52,068 nt of DNA from an uncultured Clostridia bacterium (GCA_947623775.1 CANQHL010000002.1:1-52068); one strand, 5' to 3'; counted from the stretch's first letter, positions 30,666 through 52,068 are shown. A program made the numbers and translations. Notes: a model not told the origin generated them from the sequence alone.

Positions 30666-30671
30666 AAAAAT

Positions 30672-35685: not shown

Positions 35686-35691
35686 GATTTT

Positions 35692-35720: not shown

Positions 35721-35984
35721 AAATAATGCAAACCAATTTGTAAAATATCAAAAATTTGATTAAATAAAATAAATGAAAAAAAGCAAAACAAATGAAATAC
35801 GTTATAATATGCATAACTTTGTCAAATATTTTGAGTTGTGTTTATATTATCTAAACTCCAAAAATTTCAATTGTAATGCTGATAATTTTCTCGGAAGCGA
35901 AGATAAACTTGAAATGCCAAAAGCAATTTTATGGCAAATGAAAAAACATTGCATAATCATCGCAGTTTAAAAATGATTTAAAAG

Positions 35985-37250: not shown

Positions 37251-39224
37251 TCATAAAACCTGCTCATCCTTGTCTGATTGATTGTTCTGGACATATCCGA
37301 GTTCATTGTCTGGATAATTTTCAGGATGGTCAATTTTATCTAGATAAATTATTTTTTCATCATCAGTTGCCCACAATGAATCAAATGTTGCAAGCAATTC
37401 GGCACCAAGATACCTCTTGATAAACAATCTGACTTGTTTAACCTCGGTCATATCAGCCACTCTAAGTGAGAGCATTAAGGCATATTTTGCATTTGTGTTG
37501 GTTGGAATATCTGATGATGAAACATCATTGTTCATAATATCGTCAATTGTTATAAGTGGCATCTTTGCAAATGAAATGAATGATTTTGCATTTTCTTTTC
37601 CTATTTTATTTGAAATCAATGCTTCTCTTATAACTCCATTGTTATCATAGATGATGTTGGAAAGTTGTTCCCAGCCACGAGGGTCAATTGCAAATTCAGA
37701 CTTTTCTTTATCATATTTTGTATAGAAAACTTTATCTGAATAAGCCGCTACAAATGATGCTACAAGTGGGTGAATTCTTGGTTTTCCGTCAACAACTACA
37801 CTTCCCCATTCGAGCCAATCTTGTAAGTCAAGAGGTAGTTCAATGTGTGCGTTGAATCTTCTGAACAATGGCTCAGGCATAGGTGATGCAACGTCAGATT
37901 CTTTTGTGCTGTTTCCTGCGGCAATAACAACGCAGTTGTCAGGCAATTTGCCATAATTTCCATCTATGGAACGTTCAAGAACAATATGGTATACCAAACT
38001 TTGTTCATATTGACGAACATTGGTTATTTCATCAATAAACAAAACATGATTTCTTTCAGGGTCGTTTGCACAAACTTCCTTTATTCTTCTGTACCAAGTA
38101 GGCTCTATCCAAGAACTTTCCTTTGTTTGTTCGTTATAAGCGGTTTTACCGATAACCTCTTCTGGCAAAATGCCATCACGAAGTTGAATCATAACGCAAT
38201 CTGGGTCTATATCTTTTACACGTCTGCTTTTACCGACACCGCTTCTTCCGTGAAGCATAATGCTTAATTTGTTGTCAATATAAAATCTCAATTGTTCATC
38301 AATTGTCATAGGTCCGTCTTGAACGGAAACTTGAAATTTGTTTCTGTTTTTGGTTGGTGTTCTGCTGCTGTCAACTGAAATGTCAAAGAAGCCGTTTCCG
38401 GCATATTCACCATATCCATTCAAGAAATTTCTTGTTTGAGACAATGAATAATCATTTCCATTTACAGGCAATCCGGTAATTATACCTTCTGCAGGCGTAA
38501 TGTCTATTGGTGTTTTATCAGGAATGCTTGCATATCCTCTTGTGTTGAGGTGATCAAGCGTTTCATTATCGCAATTTATACGCCAAGTGATTGGCTCAAC
38601 TTCAAACCAATAACTCCTATCTTCAACCGCACTTCCGTCCGAAAATCTTGCTACATCGGTGGCTTTTGCTTTTATTTTAACAAATCGTCTTATTCTCCCG
38701 TCCACTTCACCCTCATATTCTTCACAATAAGCAGGGCCCTGTGCATCATCAAAAGTATAAGGATATTTCCTTCCTGTTTTGGTCAATTCGGAATTTGCCA
38801 ACATGGAATCCAACTTGAAAGTGTCGTGATAAATAGATTGTGGCCATACCCAATTTCTGTATATAAGTGTTCTCTCTTGTTTTGAAACTTGATATGGTCC
38901 AAATGGGTAAGCGTTTGAAAATGCAGATGCTTTTAACACAATATGTGGATGTGTGATGTTTGCTACACTTCCACTATTTCCCATTTTTTTCACATCTCGT
39001 ACATTTATTTCAGCAGTCTTTTTTCGGTCAACGGCCGCTCCACATGCAAGAGCAAAATCGGACACAACAATTTCTGGACTGAGGTTTCTTTTTGCAAGAG
39101 AGTCTGTGGTGTCAATAAACGCCTTATCTCTCATTTTTCCGTCACGTCCTTTGTTTTGCGAATTGTCAATTCCAGGTAAGAGTGCACTGTAAATATACTT
39201 ATTTATTTCAACATTATTGCTCAT
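37251..39224 (-). CDS. AAA+ ATPase (MoxR/AAA_5-like core) with ~300-aa N-terminal and ~150-aa C-terminal domains of unknown function
   Basis: Walker A LHGRSGVGKS, Walker B HVLFIDEITN, sensor-1 IAAGNS, PEPLFRRF (equivalent to the MoxR LDRF arginine region). N-terminal domain includes YWFEVEPITWRIN. Confidence 0.85.
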   Translation of the reverse strand: MSNNVEINKYIYSALLPGIDNSQNKGRDGKMRDKAFIDTTDSLAKRNLSPEIVVSDFALACGAAVDRKKTAEINVRDVKKMGNSGSVANITHPHIVLKASAFSNAYPFGPYQVSKQERTLIYRNWVWPQSIYHDTFKLDSMLANSELTKTGRKYPYTFDDAQGPAYCEEYEGEVDGRIRRFVKIKAKATDVARFSDGSAVEDRSYWFEVEPITWRINCDNETLDHLNTRGYASIPDKTPIDITPAEGIITGLPVNGNDYSLSQTRNFLNGYGEYAGNGFFDISVDSSRTPTKNRNKFQVSVQDGPMTIDEQLRFYIDNKLSIMLHGRSGVGKSRRVKDIDPDCVMIQLRDGILPEEVIGKTAYNEQTKESSWIEPTWYRRIKEVCANDPERNHVLFIDEITNVRQYEQSLVYHIVLERSIDGNYGKLPDNCVVIAAGNSTKESDVASPMPEPLFRRFNAHIELPLDLQDWLEWGSVVVDGKPRIHPLVASFVAAYSDKVFYTKYDKEKSEFAIDPRGWEQLSNIIYDNNGVIREALISNKIGKENAKSFISFAKMPLITIDDIMNNDVSSSDIPTNTNAKYALMLSLRVADMTEVKQVRLFIKRYLGAELLATFDSLWATDDEKIIYLDKIDHPENYPDNELGYVQNNQSDKDEQVL

Positions 39225-39247
39225 TTTTCCCGTCCTTTTATATTTTT

Positions 39248-39276
39248 ATTATATCATAATAGTCAAATTGCGTCAA
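39248..39276 (-). promoter_or_regulatory. Promoter of the AAA+ ATPase gene
   Basis: Minus-strand TTGACG (39276-39271), 17 nt, TATAAT (39253-39248). Confidence 0.65.
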
Positions 39277-39362
39277 GATTGTTTTTGCAATTTATTAATG
39301 TAGACAATCTTTCTTCGACCAACTGCAAACGAACTTATGCAATTTAACAATAGTTTAACTTA

Positions 39363-40034
39363 TCATTCAATATCCAAATAATCTCCGTCACCATAATCCT
39401 GTGGCAAATCTTCTTCGCCTTGCGATTTAACCGCCGAACCATCTTTGCCTTTGCTTAGCATATCAAACTTATAAACCAATGGTCTTTCATTTCTGAATTC
39501 CGGTGCAATCGAACACTCACTTTCAATTTTTTCGGCATTTGCAACATAAGGCTTTACTTTTTCAATACGCTTGTTGACAACATTTAATTTTTGGCATGTA
39601 TCCTCAAACAATTTTTCAAGTGCCTGCAACTGCTCCACTGAAATATCAACAAAAAATTTGTCTATTGCCAAATGCACCATTTCATCATTTGGCACGTCTT
39701 CCACGTTTTTATATTTTGTTTTTAAGTGGTCGTTTGCCTGCACAAGCATATCTCTGAGAAAGGGCAAAGACGCACCCTCGCTGTTTTTGCTTGAATTTAA
39801 TGTTTTTCTTTGCACAACAAATGGAAATTTAACAACTTGTGTTAACACTCTTTTTTCAGCCATCAACCTTGTAAGCAATGTTTTTGGATTGTTTTTCTCA
39901 AAACCCTTTACATTTTCATAAAAGTGTGCAGTGGTGATTTCTTCATAATCATGTCCATAAAGCGTTCTGAATTGTTCCGCTTCCTCTTTTGTTTTAAACA
40001 TTTTATCATGTCCTGAAACACCGTAAATTTTCAT
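39363..40034 (-). CDS. Soluble protein B3 (223 aa), C-terminal tail ...GDGDYLDIE
   Basis: GGAGG RBS. No signal peptide. N-terminus MKIYGVSGHDKMFKTKEEAEQFR resembles that of 41288-41893. Ends in the shared Y-[LI]-[DE]-[LI]-E tail (stop TGA). Confidence 0.8.
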   Translation of the reverse strand: MKIYGVSGHDKMFKTKEEAEQFRTLYGHDYEEITTAHFYENVKGFEKNNPKTLLTRLMAEKRVLTQVVKFPFVVQRKTLNSSKNSEGASLPFLRDMLVQANDHLKTKYKNVEDVPNDEMVHLAIDKFFVDISVEQLQALEKLFEDTCQKLNVVNKRIEKVKPYVANAEKIESECSIAPEFRNERPLVYKFDMLSKGKDGSAVKSQGEEDLPQDYGDGDYLDIE

Positions 40035-40047
40035 CTTTCCTCCGCTT

Positions 40048-40710
40048 TTACTCTAAGTCCAAATATCCAGCAAAGTCCTTTGCCTCCGGTGGCATGATGT
40101 CACTGTAATCAATATTATCCAAAACTTTATAATAATGATGAAATTCTCTTTCAACAATTTCATTTAAATCAAATGTGCTGTTTCTATCTATATAATATTT
40201 TTTTATGCTTGCAATTTTTTCATTTATACTGTTTATCATTTTGCAAGATTTCACATAGGCTTTTTTTAAATGTTCAACATCTTCTTTTGAAAATGCAACG
40301 CTGCGTCCATATATTCCCGGATAATAAATCAAGCCGTCCCATCTCAAACCTTTTTCGCTTTTTTCAATTTTGTCCATTGCGAAAATCAAAAATTCATGAA
40401 GTTCGTTAAGCATCGAAATTCTTATCGAGGTGTCAAGTTTGTCTCTTAAAACAGAACTTTCCACAAAATAACAACATTTGGTGTAAAGTTTTTGTTTTGC
40501 ATAAATTAATTGCCTTAAACTTTCTGCCGGTTTTGCCATGTAAACCTCTTTTGTGTCAGAAAAATCAGGGACGTCTACAACAACATCATCTTCCTTTCCA
40601 CTAATCAATTTCCACTCTTCCGCATCTTGATATTTTTCAAAAATCAATGGCATGAGGGATAAATTTCCGCTTTGTTCTCTTCTTGCAATTCCATATTTTG
40701 TGGTTTTCAT
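40048..40710 (-). CDS. Soluble protein B2 (220 aa), C-terminal tail ...FAGYLDLE
   Basis: AAGGAGA RBS, 13-nt gap to the next gene. Ends in the shared tail. Confidence 0.8.
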   Translation of the reverse strand: MKTTKYGIARREQSGNLSLMPLIFEKYQDAEEWKLISGKEDDVVVDVPDFSDTKEVYMAKPAESLRQLIYAKQKLYTKCCYFVESSVLRDKLDTSIRISMLNELHEFLIFAMDKIEKSEKGLRWDGLIYYPGIYGRSVAFSKEDVEHLKKAYVKSCKMINSINEKIASIKKYYIDRNSTFDLNEIVEREFHHYYKVLDNIDYSDIMPPEAKDFAGYLDLE

Positions 40711-40741
40711 TTTATCTCCTTAAATTATGGTGATAATATTT

Positions 40742-41275
40742 TTATGCTTTTTGTATCTCCTGTTCTTCCTTTGTCTTTTGGCGTGAACGAGTTTCTCTCC
40801 ATGCTTTAACATCATCAACACCTGATGCAATCATATAGTTGAGTCCTCTCATCTTATCACTTGCAAAGCCTAAATCCATTACAAGCAGCTCAAGTGCCGC
40901 AGCAACTGAACTTGCAACCATGCCGCATTCCAACGCTACATGGCTGTTTAAGAATTTTTCCATTGCCTCATATTCTTTTAGGTTGTTTCCTTTGGCATAA
41001 TCAACAACAAAATCATTTGAATTTAAATAATCATCGGCGTCTGAGACATCATTGTAAGATATTTCTCCTCTATCCGCTTTATCCTTTAATTCCCGAACAT
41101 AATTTTTTTGATTGTCGTATACCTGCTGAAATTGCGTTGTCTCTTTCACCTGGTCTAAAGCACTTAAATAGTCTTTATTTTGTTGTGAGTACACATATAT
41201 TGTCGTTCCCAGTGCTGCTGGAACAATTGATGCAAGTACAAATCCACCTGCAATTTTCAATAAACCTTTAAACAT
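40742..41275 (-). CDS. Two-TM membrane protein M4 (most divergent member of the M family)
   Basis: N-terminus MFKGLLKIAGGFVLASIVPAALGTTIYVY, central RGEISYNDV motif, second hydrophobic segment ECGMVASSVAAALELLVMDLGF, charged tail. Confidence 0.8.
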   Translation of the reverse strand: MFKGLLKIAGGFVLASIVPAALGTTIYVYSQQNKDYLSALDQVKETTQFQQVYDNQKNYVRELKDKADRGEISYNDVSDADDYLNSNDFVVDYAKGNNLKEYEAMEKFLNSHVALECGMVASSVAAALELLVMDLGFASDKMRGLNYMIASGVDDVKAWRETRSRQKTKEEQEIQKA

Positions 41276-41287
41276 TTTCTACTCCAA

Positions 41288-41893
41288 TTATTCATTCTCG
41301 CTTTCTTCGACTGGCTCTTCTTTAATTCCATAACGCTCGTTTAATTGTTCAATCTTTTTATCAACTTCTTCAAGAGTTGCTTTCAATTCGTTATATTGTC
41401 TGAATGTGATTGTAGCATAAGGAGATATGCTGCTTGGTTGTTTATAATAAATTTTATCAACAATCACATCTTGTTCGTTAGCCACATCGAGTTGTTTGTT
41501 TTTTATGTTCTCATCTGATTTTTTAATTATTTCTTGCAAAAATTCATAACATACCCTATTGCATTTTAAAACCATTTTTTCATCACCTCTGCGGTTGTTA
41601 TTGAAAACAATGGCATGTTTTAGAGGTATTGAGCCTTTCAACTTCTTTAATTCATTGATATATTTGCAATTTTTCTCATATGGATGGTCCTTGAGAAGTT
41701 GCTCAATTGTATCATAAACTTTAATATTATCAGATTCTACATCTGGAACAATTTTGTATCTGTTCTCAGGCAATGTCAAATATTTGACTCCGCAAAACCT
41801 TGTTTCATCATATGGAGCATATTCCTCTCTGAACTTTTGTGCAACTTTAAATGTGCTGAACGCATAATCTTTTCCTGTTATTTTAAAAATCAT
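41288..41893 (-). CDS. Soluble protein B1 (201 aa), acidic tail ...EEPVEESENE (no YLDLE)
   Basis: GGAG RBS. N-terminus MIFKITGKDYAFSTFKVAQKFREEY is similar to B3. 12-nt gap to M4. Confidence 0.8.
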   Translation of the reverse strand: MIFKITGKDYAFSTFKVAQKFREEYAPYDETRFCGVKYLTLPENRYKIVPDVESDNIKVYDTIEQLLKDHPYEKNCKYINELKKLKGSIPLKHAIVFNNNRRGDEKMVLKCNRVCYEFLQEIIKKSDENIKNKQLDVANEQDVIVDKIYYKQPSSISPYATITFRQYNELKATLEEVDKKIEQLNERYGIKEEPVEESENE

Positions 41894-41926
41894 ATTTCCC
41901 CCTTTTTCTCCAAAATGGATTTTTTA

Positions 41927-42511
41927 TTAATCTGCTATTTCTTCGGTGTATTCATCAATTGCTCTTTCGCGAGCATCTTGCTGTTTTTTCTCTCGTTTTT
42001 CTGCTGCCAAACGTTTTGCTTCGTCTAAATCCCATTCGCCACTGACTATCAAGTTATCACCGAAGCCGCTACGCCAATTAACCAAAGCGCACACTGCCGC
42101 AAGTGCAAAAGTTGAACCAACTCCAATGGCTGCTTTTACAAGTTGGTCGCGGGTTTTCAATATTCCCTGAAAATTTTCATCATCACTATACATTTGCCTT
42201 GCAATATCTTTTGACAAATTTGATTTGTGAGCTTCACTGTTTATTTCCTTGCTCTGGTCGAAGTACTCACCGTTTGACAATTCGCCCTCTTCAAAAAGCG
42301 TGTCAAGTTGCTGATTTTCCTCAAGTATTCTCTCTTGAACCGCATCTTGAACAAGCTTTGATTCGCGATATTCAACTTCTCTGTTGTCGTTTCCAGCAAT
42401 ACCGAGCAAAACACCTATAAATGCCACTCCGGTGGCAAATGCGGCAGGCACTATACCATGCCCGACAACCAATTTTACTCCGCCTTTAACTTTTTTTAAT
42501 AACGCTTGCAT
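41927..42511 (-). CDS. Two-TM membrane protein M3
   Basis: MQALLKKVKGGVKLVVGHGIVPAAFATGVAFIGVLLGIAG, EEGELSNGEYF motif, second TM AAIGVGSTFALAAVCALV, tail ...IDEYTEEIAD. Confidence 0.8.
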   Translation of the reverse strand: MQALLKKVKGGVKLVVGHGIVPAAFATGVAFIGVLLGIAGNDNREVEYRESKLVQDAVQERILEENQQLDTLFEEGELSNGEYFDQSKEINSEAHKSNLSKDIARQMYSDDENFQGILKTRDQLVKAAIGVGSTFALAAVCALVNWRSGFGDNLIVSGEWDLDEAKRLAAEKREKKQQDARERAIDEYTEEIAD

Positions 42512-42533
42512 ATGCTCTCCTTCAGATAATATA

Positions 42534-42562
42534 ATTATATATTAAAAACCAGTGTTTGTCAA
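42534..42562 (-). promoter_or_regulatory. Internal promoter of the locus (drives M3-B1-M4-B2-B3)
   Basis: Minus-strand TTGACA (42562-42557), 17 nt, TATAAT (42539-42534). GGAG and ATG 42511 lie downstream. Confidence 0.7.
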
Positions 42563-42586
42563 TATTGCATAAAAATAAAATTTAGT

Positions 42587-42609
42587 AAAAAAAAACACCA
42601 TAATGGTGT
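42587..42609 (-). terminator. Intrinsic terminator after 42677-43228 (triloop type)
   Basis: ACACCA-tta-TGGTGT on the minus strand followed by T8-9. Same architecture (6-bp stem, T[AT]A triloop, A/T runs) as the hairpins in the intergenic repeat family. Confidence 0.6.
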
Positions 42610-42676
42610 TTTTGCTTGAAGAAATCGTGAACATAGTGACAAAATCAAAAAATAATTTGTACTCACTGATTTTTTA

Positions 42677-43228
42677 TTATTCAATCTCAGGTTGATTTTC
42701 TTGTTGTGCTTCTTGTGCGTTAAGCCATGAAGCTATCAGGCTGCTTTCCCGGTCACCATCTGTAACATATGAAAGACCATATTCGAAAGTTGATGGACTT
42801 ACATCAATTAAATTTGTGAACACTGACAAAGGAAATTCAATATTATTTGGCTTTACTATAACTTTCGCAGGTCGGCCATTTTCTTGAGAAACAAATTTTT
42901 TATTTGCCTCTTTATACTTTACGCACCCTAACATTTTCAATGCTGCGGACAATTGGCGTTGTTCTTTCTCGGTGAAATTAAGATCTTCACACTTCAAAAC
43001 CACAGTAAGAACTTTTTTGCAAAAATGCACTGCTTCTTCCATGGTTGTTTGGCTTGATTTTAAATTTACAGGTACAATTTCAGTCAGTGCGAGCAATGCT
43101 TCCGGAACATGGTGATAAACAAATGCCTCATGTGCGGCTCTTTCTTGACGGAGTCTTTTGATTGTTGCTTGTCCCTCAGGACTTTGCTCCCATTCCCTTC
43201 GCTTTTTATCATAAATATTTTCTTTCAT
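42677..43228 (-). CDS. Singleton soluble protein U1 (183 aa), tail ...QQENQPEIE
   Basis: GAGGTGA RBS. Has its own consensus promoter and terminator. No recognisable motif. Confidence 0.8.
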   Translation of the reverse strand: MKENIYDKKRREWEQSPEGQATIKRLRQERAAHEAFVYHHVPEALLALTEIVPVNLKSSQTTMEEAVHFCKKVLTVVLKCEDLNFTEKEQRQLSAALKMLGCVKYKEANKKFVSQENGRPAKVIVKPNNIEFPLSVFTNLIDVSPSTFEYGLSYVTDGDRESSLIASWLNAQEAQQENQPEIE

Positions 43229-43250
43229 ATTTCACCTCTTACTTATAAAT

Positions 43251-43279
43251 ATTATAATGTTATATTTATAAATTGTCAA
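43251..43279 (-). promoter_or_regulatory. Promoter of 42677-43228
   Basis: Minus-strand TTGACA (43279-43274), 17 nt, TATAAT (43256-43251). Confidence 0.7.
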
Positions 43280-43406
43280 TAAACAACTGAATTTATTTAT
43301 AATATTTCCTGCCAAATAAAATGGCGTGGAAATATTTGAAAAATTTGTAAGATTAAAAACCCAAATTTAGGCTGATGATTTTGCTATGTACATTTCTCGT
43401 AATTAT

Positions 43407-43970
43407 TTATCTCTCTATTTCCTCAGAATACTCTTCGTCTTGTTTTTTCTTGTCCTCTTCTTCTTTTAGCAGATATGAGGTGTCCATTGCGTCAAAAGCG
43501 ATGTCGGCAAATTTTTCTACGTAGCCCGTTAAAAAACCTAAGCCAAGATATGCCAAAGAACCAAAGCCAAGTGCAGATGTCACGATATGCCCCACCATAA
43601 GTTTATCATCTTTTTTTAAGAGAGCATTATATTCTTCATCTTCGGCAAAAACCTCGTCTGCTGTTTTTTTCACAAGTTCATCTCTGTCTTGATTTTCTAG
43701 GTCTTTTTTCATTCTTAAATACTCGCCATCCGTGATTTCGCCATTTGCAAGTTGGTCGTCAAGTTCCGTCATTTCATCGGAAAGTTTATCATCGACAATA
43801 TTTTGAACCACTTCATAATTATAATATTCACCTAAATCGCGTTGAGTGGTTGCGTGTGCACCCAACGTTGCAAAGCCGGCAATTACCCCAACCGGAGTAA
43901 GGGCCATCGGTAAAGTAACAGTTACGCCAAGAACAAGTCCGCCTTCAATCATTTTTATAATTGATTTCAT
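43407..43970 (-). CDS. Two-TM membrane protein M2
   Basis: MKSIIKMIEGGLVLGVTVTLPMALTPVGVIAGFATLGA, ANGEITDGEYL motif, second TM VTSALGFGSLAYLGLGFLTG, tail ...DEEYSEEIER. Confidence 0.8.
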   Translation of the reverse strand: MKSIIKMIEGGLVLGVTVTLPMALTPVGVIAGFATLGAHATTQRDLGEYYNYEVVQNIVDDKLSDEMTELDDQLANGEITDGEYLRMKKDLENQDRDELVKKTADEVFAEDEEYNALLKKDDKLMVGHIVTSALGFGSLAYLGLGFLTGYVEKFADIAFDAMDTSYLLKEEEDKKKQDEEYSEEIER

Positions 43971-43987
43971 TGTAACTCCTTTTAATG

Positions 43988-44491
43988 TTAAACTCTTATC
44001 ATATTTTCCGGCCGTATTTTGCCATCAATCAGCCGTTTTGGAGAAATTATTTTTTGTGCCAATGGAAGATAAGGTTGCATTATAATCACTCTCCCCTCAT
44101 TTTCCGTTTGTGAGGCGGTTTCTGTAAAATATTCTATATTTGCATTTACAAAAACTTTATCCCATACATCATTTATTTGATAAATTTGTTTAAGTTTTTT
44201 TATAAGTGCATCTTTCCTTGGCTCTATATCTGCTGAAACTTCCAGAGTGCCGACCTCATCAATCAAATCTCTGAGTTCTTCATGATTTAATTCATCAGCA
44301 AACAAATACACTTCCCTTTCTTTAAAATCATTTTCTGCCACTTTCTCTTCGCAAAGGATTTTTATTGTTGATTTCGGTATGTTTTCCAATTTGTAAATGT
44401 CGTCACTATCGGCAAAAATATATTTTTCTTTTTTCTCTTTCCCTTGAAAATAGATTATATTAAATTTGTAAACTTTGTCAAGTGTTAACAT
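43988..44491 (-). CDS. Family-A paralog A9 (167 aa), the only member lacking the YLDLE tail
   Basis: VYKFNIIYF, FADSDDIYKLENIPKST and ISPKRLIDGKIRP align with the other A members. Ends ...PENMIRV. Confidence 0.8.
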   Translation of the reverse strand: MLTLDKVYKFNIIYFQGKEKKEKYIFADSDDIYKLENIPKSTIKILCEEKVAENDFKEREVYLFADELNHEELRDLIDEVGTLEVSADIEPRKDALIKKLKQIYQINDVWDKVFVNANIEYFTETASQTENEGRVIIMQPYLPLAQKIISPKRLIDGKIRPENMIRV

Positions 44492-44514
44492 ATTTTTCTC
44501 CTGTTTTTTACTTG

Positions 44515-45132
44515 TTATTTAACCACTTCTTCAGAATAAGAATCCATCTTTTTTTGATACACTTTAATTTGATGCTCGGTCTGTTTTTGCTTTAACCTTT
44601 TTTCTTTTTCTTCCGCTTCCTCTTCTGCCAACTCTTGCCCTTGACGGCATGCTTTTACACCTGCATTATAAAGCGCATAACCAAGCCCTATTCCAAATGA
44701 TACCATTGTAAAAACTGTTAAGCCGCCACCAATTGTCATCAATGAAATTGCAGCCTTTTTTAATTGCTCGTCTTGTTTTAACATTCCGTTATACTCCTCA
44801 TCAGAGGCGAAAATTTCCGCTACGGTTTTTTGTTCAATTGCGTGCTTATGTAAATTATCATCAAGATTATGTTTTAATTTCTTATATTCGCTTTCTGTGA
44901 TTTCTCCATCGGCAAATTGTTTTTCAAGTTCTTCATTTTCTATTGTAAGAGTGTCTTGCACAATCTCCTGAACCTGCTCATTTTCATAAAATTGTGTATA
45001 TCTATCATCTCTTAATAGATAAGCGCCACCTGTGCCAAGCCCGGCACCTAATCCCATGCAACCCGCTATCATAACACCATACGATGCGGCAAACGCAAGT
45101 CCGCCTTTTATCCTTTTTAAAATTGATTTCAT
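44515..45132 (-). CDS. Two-TM membrane protein M1
   Basis: MKSILKRIKGGLAFAASYGVMIAGCMGLGAGLGTGGAYLL, ADGEITESEYK motif, second TM LMTIGGGLTVFTMVSFGIGLGYAL, tail ...MDSYSEEVVK. Confidence 0.8.
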   Translation of the reverse strand: MKSILKRIKGGLAFAASYGVMIAGCMGLGAGLGTGGAYLLRDDRYTQFYENEQVQEIVQDTLTIENEELEKQFADGEITESEYKKLKHNLDDNLHKHAIEQKTVAEIFASDEEYNGMLKQDEQLKKAAISLMTIGGGLTVFTMVSFGIGLGYALYNAGVKACRQGQELAEEEAEEKEKRLKQKQTEHQIKVYQKKMDSYSEEVVK

Positions 45133-45153
45133 TTTTGCTCCTATTCTTCAAAC

Positions 45154-45672
45154 TTATTCCAAATCTAGATATGCCCCATCATAATTGTTTGCTTTTTCTT
45201 CGGGCGGACAAATTTTTCCATCAATCAATTGTTGCGGCGAAATAACGGTCTGTGCAGAAGAGAAAAATGGCTGTATAATATTTATTCTGCCCGTGTAATC
45301 GGTGAAATAGTCAATGTTTTTATTTACAAAAACCTTGCACCATTTATCGTCGGCATGATATATACGCCTAAGATTTTGTTCTAATGCTTCTCTTTGAGGT
45401 TCTTTGTCTTTTGAAACGGTCAGGCTGCTTACTTCATTAATTAAATCTCTCAACCCCATTTTTGTCAACTCGTCGCCAACTAAATATGCCTTTACTTCCT
45501 CAAACTTTTCCCCATCTTGAGAACTTTTATCGCAAATTATCAGCGTTGTAGTTTTAGGAATACCATTCAACTGAAAAACATCGTCGCTATCGGAAAATAA
45601 AAATTTAGACTTCTTTTCCTCGCCCTCGTAATACACCACCTTAAATCGATAAATACTTCCAAATGTTGCCAT
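45154..45672 (-). CDS. Family-A paralog A8 (172 aa), tail ...YDGAYLDLE
   Basis: AAGGAGG RBS. IYRFKVVYY, FSDSDDVFQLNGIPKTT, ISPQQLIDGKICP. Confidence 0.8.
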   Translation of the reverse strand: MATFGSIYRFKVVYYEGEEKKSKFLFSDSDDVFQLNGIPKTTTLIICDKSSQDGEKFEEVKAYLVGDELTKMGLRDLINEVSSLTVSKDKEPQREALEQNLRRIYHADDKWCKVFVNKNIDYFTDYTGRINIIQPFFSSAQTVISPQQLIDGKICPPEEKANNYDGAYLDLE

Positions 45673-45714
45673 TTTTCCTCCTTATTAAGTTGATTTTTCT
45701 AACATTTTTTATTT

Positions 45715-46254
45715 CTATTCCAAATCTAAATATGGTCGGCTTTCATCTTCTTTCTCAAATGGTCGACTTTCGTCTGCTTTCTCAAGCGGGAATATTTTGC
45801 CGCATGCAATTTGTTTCGGAAAAATAATGGTCTCTTTGCCAAGCCATAACGGTGACAAAATTATTCTTCTAACAACCGGATCGCAGTAGTCCACACTTCT
45901 ATTTATATAAATTTTATTGCTTTCATCGGGATCACTGCAATATTTTTCAAGCACTTTTATCATTCTCTCCTTAAAATCATATAATTTATATGATACTTTC
46001 AATTGTTGCAACGTTTCAATTTCTTTTCTTGCCTCTTCTTTTGTCAATTCTTCGCCAACCATATAAGTGCTTTGCAATTCCCATTCTTTATCATGCCCGG
46101 CAGTTGAGCGACAATAGATTTTTGTTGTTGTTTCTGGCACGCCCTCCAACTTGTAAATATCATCACTATCGGAAAATACAATCTTTTTTCTTTCCGCCTT
46201 TCTTCCCGCATAATAATAAATCTCAAATTCGTAAATTTTATCGTTTACTATCAT
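45715..46254 (-). CDS. Family-A paralog A7 (179 aa), tail ...DESRPFEKEDESRPYLDLE
   Basis: AGGAG RBS. IYEFEIYYY, FSDSDDIYKLEGVPETT. 27-bp tandem duplication in the tail-coding region. Confidence 0.8.
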   Translation of the reverse strand: MIVNDKIYEFEIYYYAGRKAERKKIVFSDSDDIYKLEGVPETTTKIYCRSTAGHDKEWELQSTYMVGEELTKEEARKEIETLQQLKVSYKLYDFKERMIKVLEKYCSDPDESNKIYINRSVDYCDPVVRRIILSPLWLGKETIIFPKQIACGKIFPLEKADESRPFEKEDESRPYLDLE

Positions 46255-46268
46255 TTTTACTCCTATTT

Positions 46269-46808
46269 TTATTCCAAATCAAGATATAAGTCACCCTCAT
46301 TGTTTTTCTTTTCTTCATTTTCGCCATTAATTTGTTTGATTGGATAAATCTTTCCGTTTTTTATTTGTTTTGGAGAAATGGGAATGAATTCTCTTGTCCA
46401 CCAAAACCAAGAAGATACAATAATCCTATTTCTGATAGAATTTGTATCAAGGTCTATATTATTATTTAAATAAATTGTATCAGAAGTTTCATCTTTGCAG
46501 TAGGCTTTAAGGGCTTTTAAAGTAAGATTTCTTGCATCGGAAATAGAGAGTTCGTTTAATTTTTTAATTTCCGCCGCTGCGTCTTCCTGGCTCATCTCAT
46601 CGCCTATTAAATATTCGGCTTCATTTTCCCAATCTTTATCATCTTTTAAGTTTTTATAGTAGCAATAAATGTGGTGTGTAGTCTTTGGCACACCTTCTAA
46701 ACCATATATATCATTACTATCGGAATAAACAAATTTCTTTTTGCCATCTACAGTCGTGCCGTCCCAATAGAAAATCTCAAATCTATAAACTTTGTCTTTT
46801 AAAACCAT
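46269..46808 (-). CDS. Family-A paralog A6 (179 aa), tail ...EGDLYLDLE
   Basis: AGGAG RBS. VYRFEIFYW, YSDSNDIYGLEGVPKTT, ISPKQIKNGKIYP. Confidence 0.8.
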   Translation of the reverse strand: MVLKDKVYRFEIFYWDGTTVDGKKKFVYSDSNDIYGLEGVPKTTHHIYCYYKNLKDDKDWENEAEYLIGDEMSQEDAAAEIKKLNELSISDARNLTLKALKAYCKDETSDTIYLNNNIDLDTNSIRNRIIVSSWFWWTREFIPISPKQIKNGKIYPIKQINGENEEKKNNEGDLYLDLE

Positions 46809-46822
46809 TTTTGCTCCTATTT

Positions 46823-47389
46823 TTATTCCAAATCGAGATATAAGTCGCCCACATCAATTTTCTTTACTTCTTTTTTAGCGTTAATCTGCTCAGTTGAATA
46901 AATCTTGCCGTTTACAATCTGTGATGTAGAAATTATTTTGCGATCAGATGCTGGTGAAATTATTTTTATTCTCTCACGAATGGAATCACCATTGGTCAAT
47001 TTAATATTTTTATTTAAATAAATTTTATCTCTATTCTCTTCTTTTGTGTTATCCTGCACGCTGTTAAGAAATTTTTGAAGTCCATCTAAAGCATCTGTTT
47101 TGTAGCTCTCCCCGTAGAATTCCACGTAAAAATCTTTTAGTTTTTTTATTTCATTTTTTGCTTCTTCGGCTGTTATTCTATCTCCTATATCATATTGACC
47201 AACGACTTTCCAGTGTTCATACTCTTGATTAAGGTCGCAACAGCGAACATGAATGGTACAGGTAGTCTGTGGCAAATCTTGCAAAGAGTATATGTTGTCC
47301 TCGTCCGAAAACATACGCAGGCAATCCATTTTTCCTTTTTCGTCAAAATACCAAATTTCAAACATATATCCTTCGTCTTTAATTAACAT
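46823..47389 (-). CDS. Family-A paralog A5 (188 aa), tail ...VGDLYLDLE
   Basis: AGGAGA RBS. GYMFEIWYF, FSDEDNIYSLQDLPQTT, STSQIVNGKIY. Confidence 0.8.
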   Translation of the reverse strand: MLIKDEGYMFEIWYFDEKGKMDCLRMFSDEDNIYSLQDLPQTTCTIHVRCCDLNQEYEHWKVVGQYDIGDRITAEEAKNEIKKLKDFYVEFYGESYKTDALDGLQKFLNSVQDNTKEENRDKIYLNKNIKLTNGDSIRERIKIISPASDRKIISTSQIVNGKIYSTEQINAKKEVKKIDVGDLYLDLE

Positions 47390-47401
47390 TTTGTCTCCTT
47401 T

Positions 47402-47965
47402 TTATTCCAAATCAATGTATGCTCTATCGTCTTCAACGTCTCCTCTTTTTATTTGCCCAATTGGATAAATTTTGCCATTTACAAGTTGTGATGGAGATAT
47501 AATTTTGTTGTTCGAAGATGGCGGAACGACTCTTACTCTCGCCTTAATGGCAGCACTGCAGTCCAAATCAATATTTTTGTTTAAATAAATTTTATCTGCA
47601 CCAATATCTCTTGTATTATTTTTCTCACCTTTGCAAAATGCTTTAAGGCTATCAAGGATTGCTTCCTTATTGATTCTTGCACCAATATCGTCCTCGTCAA
47701 CACAAAATTCTTCTATTGCCTTTGTTTCTTTTTCCGCTTCTTCAAGCGTAATTTTATCCCCTATATCATATTCACCAGCAACACTCCAGTAAACCTGATG
47801 TTCTTTAAGATTGAGATAGTACAAACCGATATAAAAGGTTGTCTGTGGCACATCTTCCAATGCAAATATTTCTGCTTTGTCCAAGTACATCGTTTTTTTT
47901 GCTTTGTTTTTTGTCTTGTCTATATACCAAACCTCAAATTTATATACTTCGTCTTTGATCAGCAT
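47402..47965 (-). CDS. Family-A paralog A4 (187 aa), tail ...DDRAYIDLE
   Basis: AAGGAGA RBS. VYKFEVWYI, IFALEDVPQTT, ISPSQLVNGKIYP. Confidence 0.8.
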   Translation of the reverse strand: MLIKDEVYKFEVWYIDKTKNKAKKTMYLDKAEIFALEDVPQTTFYIGLYYLNLKEHQVYWSVAGEYDIGDKITLEEAEKETKAIEEFCVDEDDIGARINKEAILDSLKAFCKGEKNNTRDIGADKIYLNKNIDLDCSAAIKARVRVVPPSSNNKIISPSQLVNGKIYPIGQIKRGDVEDDRAYIDLE

Positions 47966-47983
47966 TCTTTCTCCTTATTTTTG

Positions 47984-48553
47984 TTATTCTAAATCAAGAT
48001 ATAAGTCACCCGCATCAATTTTCTTTACTTCATTTTTTGAATTAATGTGCTCAGTTGGCACAATCCTGCCGTTTACAATTTGTGATGGTGAAATGGTTTT
48101 GAAGTCGCTATCTGACGGAATAATTGATATTCTCGCATTAATGGCAGCCACACAATCCAAGTCAATATTTTTGTTTATAAAAATATTTTCTACATCCGCA
48201 TCTCTTGTGTTATTTTTTTCATTTCTGCAAAAGGCTTTAAGGCTATATAAGGCTCTTATCTTGTAACTATATTCCGTTTCGCCCTCATCAACTTCAAGTT
48301 TTTCTAAAGCCTCCAATTCCTTTTTTGCTTCATCAAGTGTGATTTTATCCCCTATTCTATAATAACCTATCGTATGCCAGAGTGTCGGATTTTCCTTTAT
48401 ATCCTTATGGTTTGCCAAAATACAATAGGCAGTTTGTGGAACACTTTCTAGCGTGTTTATATCATTACTGTCCGAATATAAAATCATTTTTTCTGCTTTT
48501 TCATGGTTAATATACCAAATCTCAAATTCATAGAGATCGTCTTTAATTAACAT
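47984..48553 (-). CDS. Family-A paralog A3 (189 aa), tail ...AGDLYLDLE
   Basis: AAGGAGGG RBS. LYEFEIWYI, YSDSNDINTLESVPQTA, ISPSQIVNGRIVP. Confidence 0.8.
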   Translation of the reverse strand: MLIKDDLYEFEIWYINHEKAEKMILYSDSNDINTLESVPQTAYCILANHKDIKENPTLWHTIGYYRIGDKITLDEAKKELEALEKLEVDEGETEYSYKIRALYSLKAFCRNEKNNTRDADVENIFINKNIDLDCVAAINARISIIPSDSDFKTISPSQIVNGRIVPTEHINSKNEVKKIDAGDLYLDLE

Positions 48554-48565
48554 TTTCCCTCCTTT

Positions 48566-49114
48566 TTATTCCAAGTCAAGGTACGGTCTATCGTCCTCAA
48601 TTTCTCCACTTTCTATTTTCTCAATTGGATAAATTTTTCCATTTACAAGTTGTTTTGGAGATATATATTGAAAATACATTCTTATACTTACATGCGGACT
48701 TACAGGAAATCTTCCTGAAATGGAATCTTTATACTCAATGTTTCTATTTATTAAAATTTCTTCAGTAGATTTCTTTTTGCAATATGATTTAAGAGCAGCA
48801 ATTGTTTTTTCCTTGTCTTTGCGAAATTTCTCCGGCACGTCAAGTTTGCTTAAAATTTCTAATTCCTCTCTTGCTTCCTGTTTTGTAAGTTTTTCAGCCA
48901 CTATATAGTCACCTTGTGCGCCTCTCCATGTTTGACCATCAGATTCCAGGACATAGCCCCAAATTTTGGTCACCTTCTGCGGAATACCGTCAAGTGCATA
49001 TATATCATTGTTGTCCGAATAGATAATTTTGCTTTTTTTGTTTTCCTCATTAGGACCGGCATCGCAATCAATGTATTCAATTTCAAATTTGTAAATCTTG
49101 TCTTTAAAAACCAT
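48566..49114 (-). CDS. Family-A paralog A2 (182 aa), tail ...DDRPYLDLE
   Basis: GAGGAG RBS. IYKFEIEYI, YSDNNDIYALDGIPQKV, ISPKQLVNGKIYP. Confidence 0.8.
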   Translation of the reverse strand: MVFKDKIYKFEIEYIDCDAGPNEENKKSKIIYSDNNDIYALDGIPQKVTKIWGYVLESDGQTWRGAQGDYIVAEKLTKQEAREELEILSKLDVPEKFRKDKEKTIAALKSYCKKKSTEEILINRNIEYKDSISGRFPVSPHVSIRMYFQYISPKQLVNGKIYPIEKIESGEIEDDRPYLDLE

Positions 49115-49134
49115 TTTTGCTCCTCGAAAATTTT

Positions 49135-49662
49135 TTATTCTAATTCGATATAAGAATTGTCGCCATTTAGTTTACTGCTGTTTATTTGTTCAAGTGAGTG
49201 AATTTTCCCATTTACAATTTGCTTTGGAGATATATAAATGCAGGTTTTTGACCACCAGGAAGATATTATTATTCTATCCATAATAGATTCTTCATTAAGG
49301 GGCACATTTTTATTTATATAAATTTTTGGAGTTTGCTTTTTATTGCAAAATGATTGAAGAGCGGCTAAAGTTTTCTCTTTGACATCGCTAAATCCCGACG
49401 TAATTTCGATTTTGCTTATTTTTTCAATCTCCTCTTTGGCTTCTTCGGTTGTAATCTCCTCACCAATCAAATAGAAATCTTCCAATTTCCAATTAGTGAT
49501 TTCATTAAGGTTTCTATAAAAGCACTTGATTATAACGCATGATTTAGGCACATCTTCTAAGGCATAAATATCGTTGCTATCCGAATACATTTTCTTTTCG
49601 GGTTTTGCCATTTCTGTATTTGAATAAAGTTCAAATTTGTAGATTTTGTCTTTAATTATCAT
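49135..49662 (-). CDS. Family-A paralog A1 (175 aa), tail ...GDNSYIELE
   Basis: First ATG (49662) lies 21 nt downstream of a consensus -10. The ORF-track GTG at 49695 overlaps the promoter. IYKFELY, YSDSNDIYALEDVPKSC, ISPKQIVNGKIH. Confidence 0.8.
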   Translation of the reverse strand: MIIKDKIYKFELYSNTEMAKPEKKMYSDSNDIYALEDVPKSCVIIKCFYRNLNEITNWKLEDFYLIGEEITTEEAKEEIEKISKIEITSGFSDVKEKTLAALQSFCNKKQTPKIYINKNVPLNEESIMDRIIISSWWSKTCIYISPKQIVNGKIHSLEQINSSKLNGDNSYIELE

Positions 49663-49683
49663 AATATCCCCAAATATATAATT

Positions 49684-49712
49684 ATTATATATCACAAATT
49701 ATATTTTGTCAA
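49684..49712 (-). promoter_or_regulatory. Promoter of the family-A array (A1 through M2, 11 genes)
   Basis: Minus-strand TTGACA (49712-49707), 17 nt, TATAAT (49689-49684). Confidence 0.7.
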
Positions 49713-49725
49713 GGCAGGACATTCT

Positions 49726-50320
49726 CGGCAAACCAGATGTTTGACGTTTAGCGAGTTATGTGATAATTATTGTTTTTATTTTCCCTCTCTTTTAAGTTTC
49801 ACCAAACCAGATGTTTGACGTTTAGCGAATGAGGTGATATTTAAAAAAATTAAATTTCATTGTCTTTCCAGCAGATTTTCTAACCAAATGTTTGACGGCA
49901 AACTTAGTTTGCATCATTAGCGAATTAAATCATATTAAAAAAATCAAATTTCATTATCGCTCAAATATCGTTAAACGAAGTAAAAAAAGGTGCATAATGC
50001 ACCCAAACCAAATGTTTGACGGCAAACCAGATGTTTGACGTCTAGCGAATGAAATGATATTTAAAAATTTAAATTTCATTGTCTTTCAAGCAAATGTTCT
50101 AACCAGATGTTTGAAGGCAAACTTAGTTTGCATCATTAGCGAATTAAATCATATTAAAAAAATTTAAATTTCATTATCGCTCAAACACCATTAAACGAAG
50201 TAAAAAAAAAGGTGCATAATGCACCCAAACCAAATGTTTGACGGCAAACCAGATGTTTGGCGTTTGGCGAATGATGTGATAATTAATGTTTTTATTTCCC
50301 CTCTCTTTTAAGTTTCAATA
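49726..50320. repeat. Array of structured intergenic repeats (about 220-bp super-unit x2 plus flanking partial units)
   Basis: Eight copies of AAACC(A/G)(A/G)ATGTTTG(A/G)(C/A)(G) (49736, 49811, 49888, 50012, 50031, 50107, 50234, 50253). Hairpin GCAAAC-TTA-GTTTGC (49898-49912, 50117-50131). CATCATTAGCGAAT. AT-rich AAATTTCATT(G/A)TC segment. Hairpin GGTGCA-TAA-TGCACC preceded by A7-9 (49989-50003, 50211-50225), which reads as hairpin + T-run on the minus strand. Confidence 0.85.
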
Positions 50321-50393
50321 GATGTGATATTAAAAAATAAACACTCGCTTTTCGATAGTGGCAAACAAAAATAAAGAGGGTTATAACACCCCC

Positions 50394-51251
50394 TTATTCT
50401 AAATCTAAATATAAATCTCCCTCCGCTTTTTGTCCAACCTTTCCGGTGGCTATATATTCACTTAATGTCTTGGATAACGGACGTTCGGCAAGTTTGGTCA
50501 AAATTTCAATTCCTATTTGTTTGTTTTTATCTTTTTTTCCGAAGAAAACCATATTTTTCCCAAGTGCAAACTCTGTTTGTGATGTAGGATTTGACTTGTA
50601 AAGTCTTGCAAGTTCTTTTTGTGTTTGAACTACTTCGCGTTTGAACTCTCTCCTGTCCCTCTCTACAAAATTGGACGCATGAATCGGAATCCCTTCGAGC
50701 AATTCAAGATATTTCTCCATCGCATAAGGGTTGTTCATCTGTTTTGCTTGTTCGTGACATGCGATTATTGCCTCAATCTGGTACTTAACAATCTGGTTAT
50801 TCCTTATCTTTTCAAACGTCTTTTCACTTCGTGTCTGAATTTCATCCAAGTCCTCCGTAAGGCTATTAAATCTTGCCTCCTCAGTATAATGCAACTTGGA
50901 AATTTTTAAACTTATAGCGTCAATTTCATCCAAATCATCATTATATTGTTTAACTAAATCTCTAAGTTCTTTTCCGCAAGGATCGGTTGCATAAAGTTTA
51001 TAGGCATTAGCGAGAATATGGTTGAAATTTCTGCTATATGCTTTTTCATCTGTTTTCATATCAATTCTAGCATTTGTTGGTTTTCCCGCCCTGCCCGTAA
51101 GCGTATAATATGCAGTAATGGCATTGACCTGTCCAAGTTCAGCCAATTTTTCCATCTCTTTCTCAACCTGAGTAGCATCTTTGGATATAAATTGTCTTGA
51201 CCACAGCGTAATAAAATCATCATCCAATTCGTTAAAGTTATTTTCTAACAT
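50394..51251 (-). CDS. Singleton helical protein H (285 aa), tail ...AEGDLYLDLE
   Basis: AGGAGA RBS, own consensus promoter. No signal peptide or TM. No similarity by eye to the A, B or M families, yet it carries the identical GDLYLDLE C-terminus. Confidence 0.8.
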   Translation of the reverse strand: MLENNFNELDDDFITLWSRQFISKDATQVEKEMEKLAELGQVNAITAYYTLTGRAGKPTNARIDMKTDEKAYSRNFNHILANAYKLYATDPCGKELRDLVKQYNDDLDEIDAISLKISKLHYTEEARFNSLTEDLDEIQTRSEKTFEKIRNNQIVKYQIEAIIACHEQAKQMNNPYAMEKYLELLEGIPIHASNFVERDRREFKREVVQTQKELARLYKSNPTSQTEFALGKNMVFFGKKDKNKQIGIEILTKLAERPLSKTLSEYIATGKVGQKAEGDLYLDLE

Positions 51252-51268
51252 TTCTTTCTCCTGTCTAT

Positions 51269-51297
51269 ATTATACCCCGCCAACGAATAAATGTCAA
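51269..51297 (-). promoter_or_regulatory. Promoter of 50394-51251
   Basis: Minus-strand TTGACA (51297-51292), 17 nt, TATAAT (51274-51269). ATG lies 17 nt downstream. Confidence 0.7.
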
Positions 51298-51379
51298 GTC
51301 ACACCTCACTTCAACAAATTTATTCTTTTTTCTTTAACATTCCTCAATCTATTTCCTTTTTTTCCAAAAAAATATTCAA

Positions 51380-51960
51380 CAAAGTTCCCTTGCCCACCGA
51401 TTTTACGGGGCATTTTTCCCGGGAAGATAGTAAATGCTCAGCATTTTGCTTGAGTAATCAAGCAAACACTGCGAAATACAACAAAAAACTAGGCTCTTGC
51501 GGGAAACTTAGTTTCCATCACTAACGAATGAAATCGTATTTAAAAAATCAATTTTCACTCTCTTTTCCAATACCATTAAACGAAGTAATAAAAAAGGGGT
51601 ATAATACCCCCGGGAAGATAGTAAATGCTTAGCATTTTGCTTGAATAATCAAGCAAACACTGCGGAATACAACAAAAAACTAGGCTCTTGCGGGAAACTT
51701 AGTTTCCATCACTAACGAATGGAATCATATTTAAAAAATCAATTTTCGCTCTCTTTTAATTTGCATAAAAGGGTTGCATAATGCACCCCAGCAGTGTTCA
51801 TTAGAAAAAGTTTTAACTTTTTCGCATGCCCCGTATTCAATAAAATTATCCCTTTCCTGTTAATATTTATGGGGCATTTTTCCCGGCCGGGAAGATGTTG
51901 CCGAAGGCAACGGCAAGCAGATTGCTTGCCAAGAACACTGCTGAATTAATTAAATACAAA
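51380..51960. repeat. Repeat units related to the 49.7-kb family, each carrying a 5S-rRNA-3'-end-like module
   Basis: Two ~190-bp tandem units (about 51400-51610 and 51600-51790) read GGGGCATTTTTCCCGGGAAGATAG + hairpin AAATGC-t(c/t)a-GCATTT + hairpin GCTTGA-(g/a)taa-TCAAGC + AACACTGCG ... GGAAAC-TTA-GTTTCC (51502-51516, 51693-51707) CATCACTAACGAATG ... GGGGTA-TAA-TACCCC (51596-51610). A third variant lies at 51871-51953. Confidence 0.8.
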
Positions 51961-51961
51961 C

Positions 51962-51990
51962 AAAAAAAAGCAACCTCGTGCGGTTGCTTT
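51962..51990 (-). terminator. Intrinsic terminator of the rRNA operon (after 5S)
   Basis: Minus-strand AGCAACC-gcacga-GGTTGCT followed by T8. Confidence 0.8.
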
Positions 51991-51999
51991 CCTTATATT

Positions 52000-52068
52000 C
52001 CAGCAGTGTTCTATCTTCCCGGACCGTCGCCAGCCAAGTATTTTCGACGATGAAAAGCTTAACTTCTG
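52000..52068 (-). rRNA. rrf: 5S rRNA, 3' portion (gene continues past the right edge)
   Basis: Reverse complement is CAGAAGTTAAGCTTTTCATCGTCGAAAATACTTGGCTGGCGACGGTCCGGGAAGATAGAACACTGCTGG. It aligns with the conserved Firmicutes 5S segment ...GGAAGTTAAGC...GCGCCGATGGTA...GAGAGTAGGACGCYGCCAGG. Confidence 0.8.

Follow-up and report, generated by a model that had tools for sequence, protein, structure and literature searches.

A shared C-terminal tail on unrelated orphan proteins

We analysed a 52,068-nucleotide (nt) stretch from an uncultured Clostridia bacterium (GCA_947623775.1, CANQHL010000002.1:1-52068; hereafter the window), in which positions 37251-51251 are occupied by 19 open reading frames (ORFs), all on the minus strand: 18 orphan genes, comprising A1-A9, M1-M4, B1-B3 and the genes H and U1, and then a gene for a MoxR-class AAA+ ATPase. 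Eleven of the 18 orphan proteins (H, A1-A8, B2 and B3) end in Y-[IL]-[DE]-[LI]-E, directly followed by the stop codon. We favour, at a probability of about 0.4, the reading that this tail is a lineage-specific C-terminal targeting tag whose receptor is encoded elsewhere, that the M proteins are likely its membrane partners, and that the outcome would be membrane recruitment or Sec-independent export of diversified clients. The tail, the client families and the fold of family A appear to be undescribed.

The sequence-only reading of this DNA had noticed one C-terminal tail on the eleven proteins, which holds and turned out to be more general than that reading saw. The position profile of the tail is [YF]-x-D-K-[SNDP]-Y-[IL]-D-L-E-COOH, and across 79 tagged proteins the 20 residues before it are rich in E, K, N and D. 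Stripped of the tail, these 79 proteins form 15 BLAST families, which collapse into approximately 6-7 superfamilies by hhalign, with A and B staying unrelated. In the related loci L090, L092, L101, L108, L112 and L116 the tail occurs on families without any BLAST or hidden Markov model relation to A or B; the additional tagged families of the relatives include proteins of 190-230 amino acids (aa) and coiled-coil-like proteins of 73-111 aa, and a Pfam scan of ten further tagged families from the relatives gave no credible match.

The tail codons in the window differ at synonymous sites (TAT/TAC; TTA/CTT/CTC/CTA/TTG/ATC/ATT; GAT/GAC; TTA/TTG; GAA/GAG), and since the peptide stays constant while the codons vary, selection acts on the protein and not on a DNA element. 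This largely refutes the idea that some conserved DNA element at the ends of the genes, e.g., a site of recombination, a duplication junction or a regulatory site, gives rise to the tail as a side effect, or that the ORFs are not genes. Tandem duplications with short similar spacers would suit such an origin, but the tail is also kept in other genomes with unrelated flanking DNA on both sides, the ORFs of the island are conserved across genomes at 35-65% amino-acid identity, and family A folds confidently in a structure model, so that we consider this explanation barely credible. The tail, moreover, persists where the domains carrying it have diverged almost past detection.

H shares 65% identity with its ortholog in L001, and its homologs in other Clostridia metagenome-assembled genomes (MAGs), recovered with a two-sequence H alignment after single-sequence H patterns had given no match, are single and tail-less genes next to parAB-mnmE-yidC or hrcA-dnaK, indicating that the tail was added to a pre-existing protein.

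Family A provides the structural view. A1-A9 are true paralogs that align over their full length, with 26-46% identity to A1, and the AlphaFold model of A2 is confident (predicted local distance difference test, pLDDT, 83; predicted TM-score, pTM, 0.78), with a sheet of four strands at the N-terminus, a pair of long helices and a small beta/alpha unit at the C-terminus. In this model the tail residues 175-182 are disordered (pLDDT <50) and not docked on their own domain. Foldseek searches with the A2 model gave no neighbour in the PDB (best E 0.13, TM-score <=0.21) or in BFVD (best E 0.07), and profile searches of the PDB with A, H and M returned noise only. An exhaustive HMMER scan of 1.84 billion representatives with the A profile found 31 clusters, and a word-indexed set of 5.8 billion proteins yielded 8 proteins. 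The distant A-like proteins (128-177 aa) are similar in the core at E 1e-6 to 1e-14 and keep a C-terminal ...Y-[ILT]-x-L-E, the sole tail-less one being P0030 (119 aa). Family A is thus a clean case of protein "dark matter", with a confident fold and no relative in structure or sequence outside its clade among the 1.84 billion representatives.

Taken together, a motif that is invariant at the free C-terminus of unrelated folds, disordered in the A2 model, under purifying selection, gained by H and limited to one lineage argues for recognition in trans by one receptor. A literature search for the tail string returned chemical names only, and none of the look-alikes known to us, i.e., the FtsZ C-terminal peptide (DYLDIP...), the beta-clamp motif (QLDLF), the SSB tail, HbYX, the C-terminal Glu of Pup, eukaryotic LIR/YxxL motifs and RiPP precursors, fits, given the terminal Glu or the lack of the remaining motif.

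Conservation and distribution of the island

The island is present in three other genomes, namely Lapin-002__bin27 (loci L001/L086 and L101/L108; L090/L091 are the same sequence), the Logan assembly of SRR29273038 (L003, L092) and Lapin-030__bin96 (L104, L116, L112, L096); the relatives with a named source are "uncultured Clostridia bacterium" MAGs from rabbit gut. Co-occurrence and synteny of A, M and the AAA+ gene had been put forward as a check on the locus, and A, M and B were found in the same order in four out of four genomes: (H), A array, M array, B1, Bx, further arrays and finally the ATPase gene, the last step being seen only in the closest relatives. The ratio of A to M copies differs, with 9:4 in the window, 3:8 in Lapin-002, 6:2 in L003 and 3:2 in Lapin-030. 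Beyond these shared genes, proteins of ~384 aa and ~416 aa are inserted within the island, between the Bx and B3-like genes, at L003 7630-10034 and L104 6133-8000 (opposite strand), none of them occurring in the window; the 384-aa protein has a weak Metallophos match, and both inserts have acidic ends (...EEEDDL, ...ERGDL/I). A protein of ~850-870 aa with a signal peptide and a C-terminal transmembrane (TM) segment lies 3' of tail arrays in L090 (7019-9640) and L116 (4252-6810) and is likewise absent from the window, the L090 copy being a member of Peptidase_M60 (enhancin-like).

A degenerate DNA pattern for D-K-x-Y-Φ-D-L-E-stop was used to scan three collections. In 185,579 species genomes it hit 32 stretches, with clustered tails only in the two Lapin MAGs, the other 20 stretches, from other genomes, being single-tail; 53 matches in 241 million metagenome records and 3 viral matches in IMG/VR each held a single tail. 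To date, the phenomenon has been seen only in a very narrow set of uncultured Clostridia from the rabbit gut. Within this group, five tagged genes of L112 stand beside ppdK, far from any M or ATPase gene. Tail arrays without M or ATPase genes nearby indicate that the system is a genome-wide set of tagged proteins and not a self-contained 14-kb cassette, and the ppdK-adjacent array further suggests that the receptor is not part of the cassette.

Membrane proteins and the proposed route of the clients

M1-M4 are paralogs with 17-35% identity to M1, each with a pair of glycine-rich hydrophobic stretches, at about residues 4-20 and 115-128, separated by an acidic loop of ~85 aa with a sub-threshold SHOCT-like motif. 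Their predicted cytoplasmic C-terminus carries an acidic Y-x-E-E-[IV]-E motif, which is related to the client tail, and often ends in ...[EK][IV]E, much like the ...DLE ending of the clients. A search for the M family returned 4 proteins, all on island contigs, a result that speaks to the rarity of the family and to little else because known members were missed. Being lineage-restricted, co-amplified and interleaved with the tagged genes, and equipped with a related C-terminal motif, the M proteins are the best candidate partners of the tail.

We propose that the tail would act as a targeting signal recognised in trans. One receptor, encoded outside the locus, would bind the carboxylate of the terminal ...DLE together with the Tyr and would bring a diversified repertoire of soluble clients to a single destination, which would most likely be the cytoplasmic membrane where the M proteins reside; there, the clients would either dock or leave the cell by a Sec-independent, holin- or channel-like route. 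The stronger version of this proposal, namely a new pathway in which dozens of orphan soluble proteins of several unrelated folds are sent by the ...DKxY[IL]DLE tag to M, for export or surface deployment independent of Sec and of type VII secretion, is doubtful in our view; if true, both the secretion or sorting system and its kind of signal would be new.

Several points weigh against the targeting proposal. The searches identified no receptor and no translocon, and we know of no secretion or sorting signal in Firmicutes that is an acidic C-terminal peptide of 5-11 residues. The clients are acidic (isoelectric points 4.8-5.9) and K/E-rich as is typical of cytoplasmic proteins, and they contain 1-4 Cys (2-4 in eight of the nine A paralogs). 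The topology of M is based solely on hydropathy and the positive-inside rule, the gene order in four fairly close genomes can be explained by inheritance instead of functional linkage, and all sequences stem from metagenome assemblies, so that the system is known from genes alone.

Alternatively, the tail could be an assembly handle. Here, the tagged proteins would be abundant subunits of a lineage-specific supramolecular structure, e.g., a cytoplasmic body, an envelope layer or a spore-associated layer, their tails docking on a common scaffold by beta-strand addition and the tail-less A9, B1 and Bx serving as caps or bases. The beta-strand-like x-L-x-L-x alternation of the tail, the many small orphan families including the coiled-coil-like tagged proteins of 73-111 aa, the tail-less members in each expanded family, and consensus promoters suggestive of high expression are all in line with such a structure. 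However, no scaffold gene was identified, the promoters are of the sigma-70/sigma-A and not of the sporulation-sigma type, and the tail is not docked on its own domain in the A2 model, which makes this explanation unlikely.

Gene families and organisation of the island

An ORF check located the 18 co-directional minus-strand genes and the ATPase gene where the sequence-only reading had placed them, and the division into three paralog families plus two singletons was supported by alignments for A and M and by profile-profile comparison for B. B1, B2 and B3 share a pairwise identity of 15-23%, and together with Bx and the orthologs they form one superfamily (94-98% probability). H and U1 are singletons within the window; U1 is unrelated to A, B and M in the profile comparison, and M is unrelated to the other families. 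As had been described, the gaps inside the arrays measure 12-42 nt and contain ribosome-binding sites, which are of the GGAG type, and only the M proteins are membrane-embedded, the soluble proteins having neither a signal peptide, a hydrophobic N-terminus nor a TM segment. The coordinates of the individual features are compiled in Table 1.

Table 1 Features of the island and its surroundings (positions refer to the window).
Feature	Coordinates	Strand	Remarks
H	50394-51251	-	285-aa soluble helical protein; C-terminus GDLYLDLE; own transcription unit
A1-A8	45154-49662	-	Eight tandem paralogs, 172-189 aa, all with Y[IL][DE]LE-COOH tail
A1	49135-49662	-	
A2	48566-49114	-	
A3	47984-48553	-	
A4	47402-47965	-	
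A5	46823-47389	-	
A6	46269-46808	-	
A7	45715-46254	-	
A8	45154-45672	-	
M1	44515-45132	-	Glycine-rich two-TM protein; predicted cytoplasmic K/E-rich C-terminus with ...YSEEVVK motif
A9	43988-44491	-	A-family paralog without linker and without tail
M2	43407-43970	-	Two-TM paralog; C-terminus EEYSEEIER
U1	42677-43228	-	183-aa soluble singleton; C-terminus ...QPEIE; own promoter and terminator
M3	41927-42511	-	Two-TM paralog; C-terminus DEYTEEIAD
B1	41288-41893	-	Tail-less B-superfamily member; 1:1 ortholog in all four genomes; hhalign 96.7% to B3 group
M4	40742-41275	-	Divergent two-TM paralog without YxEE[IV]E motif
B2	40048-40710	-	C-terminus GYLDLE; 94% probability versus B3 group
B3	39363-40034	-	C-terminus DYLDIE
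ATPase	37251-39224	-	MoxR-class AAA+, 657 aa; flanking gene with own promoter
Promoter of H	51269-51297	-	Perfect sigma-70-type match (TTGACA-17-TATAAT)
Promoter of A1...M2 unit	49684-49712	-	Perfect sigma-70-type match
Promoter of U1	43251-43279	-	Perfect sigma-70-type match
Promoter of M3-B1-M4-B2-B3 unit	42534-42562	-	Perfect sigma-70-type match
Promoter of ATPase	39248-39276	-	11/12 positions plus TG extension
H/A1 intergenic region	49696-50393	.	Repeat-built; six CAAACCARATGTTTG palindromes and two terminator-like hairpins
Terminator-like hairpin	50374-50395		Directly after H stop codon; overlaps upper end of H/A1 intergenic region
5S rRNA 3' part	51998-52068	-	Cut by contig end; last 71 bases of window; 26.7 bits, E 0.011

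Scans of the 18 proteins against Pfam, PHROG, NCBIfam and PADLOC gave no match above any curated cut-off, so that the earlier statement that none can be assigned to a known family by motif stands; the best sub-threshold match was SHOCT in M1 (21.6 bits, cut-off 27). The absence of toxin-like and nuclease-like domains, noted before for the locus, extends to the whole window and to the related loci. These results bear on the possibility that the island is an immunity or sensor repertoire, consisting either of orphan immunity genes against polymorphic toxins or of an anti-phage sensor array, in which the tail would couple the sensors to a common effector, e.g., pores formed by M. Tandem, fast-diverging paralogs with interleaved small membrane proteins do resemble an immunity island, and the families are limited to one lineage. 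Against this, neither the window nor the related loci contain a toxin, a nuclease or a known immunity domain, PADLOC returned noise only (LeoBC 19.6 bits in M1, DolB 21.8 bits in the ATPase), tail arrays are also found among housekeeping genes, and immunity proteins have no need of a shared terminal peptide. We therefore regard an immunity or sensor function as very unlikely.

The locus is not a single operon, since the island comprises at least five transcription units, set apart by gaps of 731, 178, 165 and 138 nt. Perfect TTGACA-17-TATAAT promoters precede H, A1, U1 and M3, and terminator-like hairpins follow H and U1 on their 3' side. Judged by sequence, the promoters are of the vegetative sigma-70/sigma-A type and not of the sporulation-sigma type. 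The A1 start codon is ATG at 49662 and not GTG at 49695, because the latter lies upstream of the -10 element of the promoter. In addition, a perfect TTGACA-16-TATAAT at 44454-44481 (minus strand) falls within the first codons of A9 and may be an internal promoter for A9 and M2 or a chance match.

Six copies of CAAACCARATGTTTG are located at 49729-50259, all between H and A1, where 0.1 would be expected by chance; with the last copy 17 nt upstream of the -35 element of the A1 promoter, they may form an operator array. The long gaps at 49696-50393 and 51252-51990 are composed of a dispersed repeat (~100-220 nt, with terminator-like hairpins), a family that also occurs at 387-699. Copies in intergenic gaps of L001, L003, L104 and L128 retain 75-89% nucleotide identity, which is above the conservation of the flanking proteins. 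Rfam had no match for this repeat, which may be a regulatory or small-RNA element.

The flanking ATPase

The sequence-only reading had placed a MoxR/AAA_5-like ATPase with large extra domains after the 18 genes, an assignment that our searches corroborate. The protein consists of a beta-rich N-domain (1-290), an AAA module (~310-470) and a helical C-domain (475-640), matches Pfam AAA_5 with 24.1 bits (cut-off 22) and phrog_1297 with 1e-42, and the Foldseek top matches of its AlphaFold model are NorQ and CbbQ (E 1.5e-9 to 9e-9; TM-score ~0.6, target-normalised), both of the MoxR class. No VWA or DUF2201 gene was found among the window ORFs as a VWA/MIDAS partner, a DUF2201_N neighbour occurring only beside a distant ATPase homolog (L095).

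The ATPase family comprises 213 matches across Clostridia, and among the matches listed all 120 have E <1e-105; its members occur in unrelated contexts and sometimes in multiple copies. Close orthologs (61-64% identity) are located 3' of the tail arrays in Lapin-002 and SRR29273038, with an M60-like peptidase inserted between arrays and ATPase gene in one genome and an ABC/FtsX pair in the other. The Lapin-030 homolog shares the 52-kb contig with the arrays but is encoded at another place on it (from 29.9 kb), flanked by unrelated genes, namely a pseudouridine synthase gene and recO. Given its own promoter, the widespread family in Clostridia and an adjacency restricted to the closest relatives, membership of the ATPase in the system is unproven, the earlier view of it as a dedicated component finds no support, and its likely status is that of a conserved neighbour, not of the motor. 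As a candidate reader of the tail it was discarded, its distribution and context giving no support for that role.

This also affects the possibility that the tail is a C-terminal degron or quality-control tag for delivery to an AAA+ machine, which would be the neighbouring MoxR-type ATPase or else a Clp/Lon-type protease from another locus. ssrA-type degrons sit at the free C-terminus, as the tail does, and the AAA+ gene follows the arrays in the window and in the two genomes named above. On the other side, the ATPase is NorQ/CbbQ-like without a protease partner nearby, and it belongs to a family that is common among Clostridia lacking the tail. Its gene has a promoter of its own and, in Lapin-030, is remote from the arrays. 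The C-degrons known from bacteria terminate in non-polar residues and not in Glu, and expressing dozens of orphans from consensus promoters merely for degradation would serve no obvious purpose. Altogether, we judge a degron decidedly unlikely.

Of the client/receptor system that had been inferred from the window, the client side is hence retained, in that the shared terminal peptide is real, selected at the protein level and present on many unrelated families, whereas the role of the ATPase is not supported and the receptor was not identified. Under the targeting proposal, the tail peptide itself offers a direct handle for finding this receptor, and at least 79 proteins of ~15 families provide a ready-made list of clients.

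Genomic setting

The window is bacterial chromosome of low G+C content (~35%). It encodes housekeeping proteins, including a TRAM/RumA-like methyltransferase, an EngB-like GTPase, a CoaD-like enzyme, a DUF84 NTPase and metallo-beta-lactamase-fold enzymes, as well as several GNATs and two tRNAs; the best match of an RmlA-like gene product is 44% identical, too distant to inform taxonomic placement. As shown by the partial 5S rRNA at the end of the window, the island starts immediately downstream of an rrn operon, and this junction is kept in the relative L104 (88% nucleotide identity). An origin as a phage or plasmid module was rejected, because megablast of the window against phage and plasmid records gave no match, the window holds housekeeping genes, tRNAs and the 5S rRNA end, and no arrays were found in viral contigs. 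The ordinary explanation that would have disposed of the system did not appear: phages, plasmids, defence systems and immunity families all gave no match, and no relative was found by structure either.

Three further features of the window were noted. An ORF of 3350 aa (3098-13150, minus strand) has a signal-peptide-like N-terminus and zero Pfam domains. Six GNAT acetyltransferase genes are concentrated at 24790-35814, which is unusual, two of them being fusions, one with a transglutaminase-like domain and the other with a cupin. Finally, the minus strand at 32933-34108 encodes a hexapeptide/beta-solenoid protein of 391 aa, which has an acidic tail (...DTIRIED) and strongly matches phrog_5070 (3e-57) and phrog_7964 (3e-50), PHROGs without an assigned function.

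Comparison with known systems

No known system fits the island, and the nearest analogies are conceptual ones. Motifs and partners of type VII secretion systems (T7SS) have been described (PMC9600955, PMC10801868), and all described substrates have a helical targeting domain with the motif on a helix (PMC10730906). The tailed proteins might be substrates of a type VII-like, i.e., FtsK/SpoIIIE ATPase-driven, secretion system, with the terminal Y-x-x-x-E as its YxxxD/E export motif. The tail literally fits this pattern in a Firmicute host, and in Lapin-030__bin96 (L128 14667-19065, CANQKH010000010.1) a tail-island contig carries a gene for a 955-aa FtsK_SpoIIIE protein, followed by four ~95-aa genes and one of 133 aa; with a weak WXG100 match (E 0.007) in one of the ~95-aa products, this may be a minimal type VII-like cluster. 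However, the A2 model starts with a four-stranded beta-sheet instead of a helical hairpin and bears the motif at its disordered extreme C-terminus, no WXG100 or LXG match was obtained in any tagged family, the window has no FtsK/EssC gene, and the FtsK-like protein has a single ATPase domain and lacks EssB/EsaA-type neighbours. We rate type VII-like secretion as highly improbable.

The EsaG/DUF600 and TsaI immunity arrays of S. aureus resemble the island in their tandem soluble paralogs of ~170-200 aa with multi-copy small membrane proteins, but the island and the related loci have neither a toxin gene nor a match to a known immunity family, and the shared tail is without counterpart there; as to known anti-phage defence, PADLOC models gave noise-level matches only. 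MoxR-VWA pairs (NorQ-NorD, CbbQ-CbbO) are comparable in that the AAA module of the ATPase superposes on NorQ/CbbQ, but there is no VWA partner in the window, and the protein has an N-domain of ~290 aa, beta-rich, and a helical C-domain. From the gas-vesicle set (GvpA/J/M, GvpF/L, GvpG, GvpK), solely GvpG was matched, in M1 with 16.5 bits (cut-off 30.6).

Closer in concept to the targeting proposal are C-terminal signals of the Haft type (LPXTG/sortase, PEP-CTERM/exosortase, GlyGly-CTERM/rhombosortase), which are likewise lineage-restricted motifs on unrelated proteins and often occur on paralog arrays. These combine a TM helix with a cluster of basic residues and depend on a signal peptide at the N-terminus, whereas the tagged proteins of the window have neither, contain no hydrophobic segments and end at the motif itself. 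Should the tail prove to be a targeting signal, it would represent a new class of bacterial sorting signal, i.e., an acidic free C-terminus of 5-11 residues without TM helix and without signal peptide. C-terminal peptides read by a receptor include the EEVD-COOH of Hsp70/Hsp90, which is bound by TPR clamp domains, and the cargo-loading peptides of encapsulins. The island differs from these in the sequence of the motif, in having clients that are orphans and not chaperones or enzymes, and in that the analysis identified no gene for a TPR or PDZ protein or for an encapsulin shell; as an analogy, it shares with them a short motif at the free C-terminus of unrelated proteins, preceded by a low-complexity stretch.

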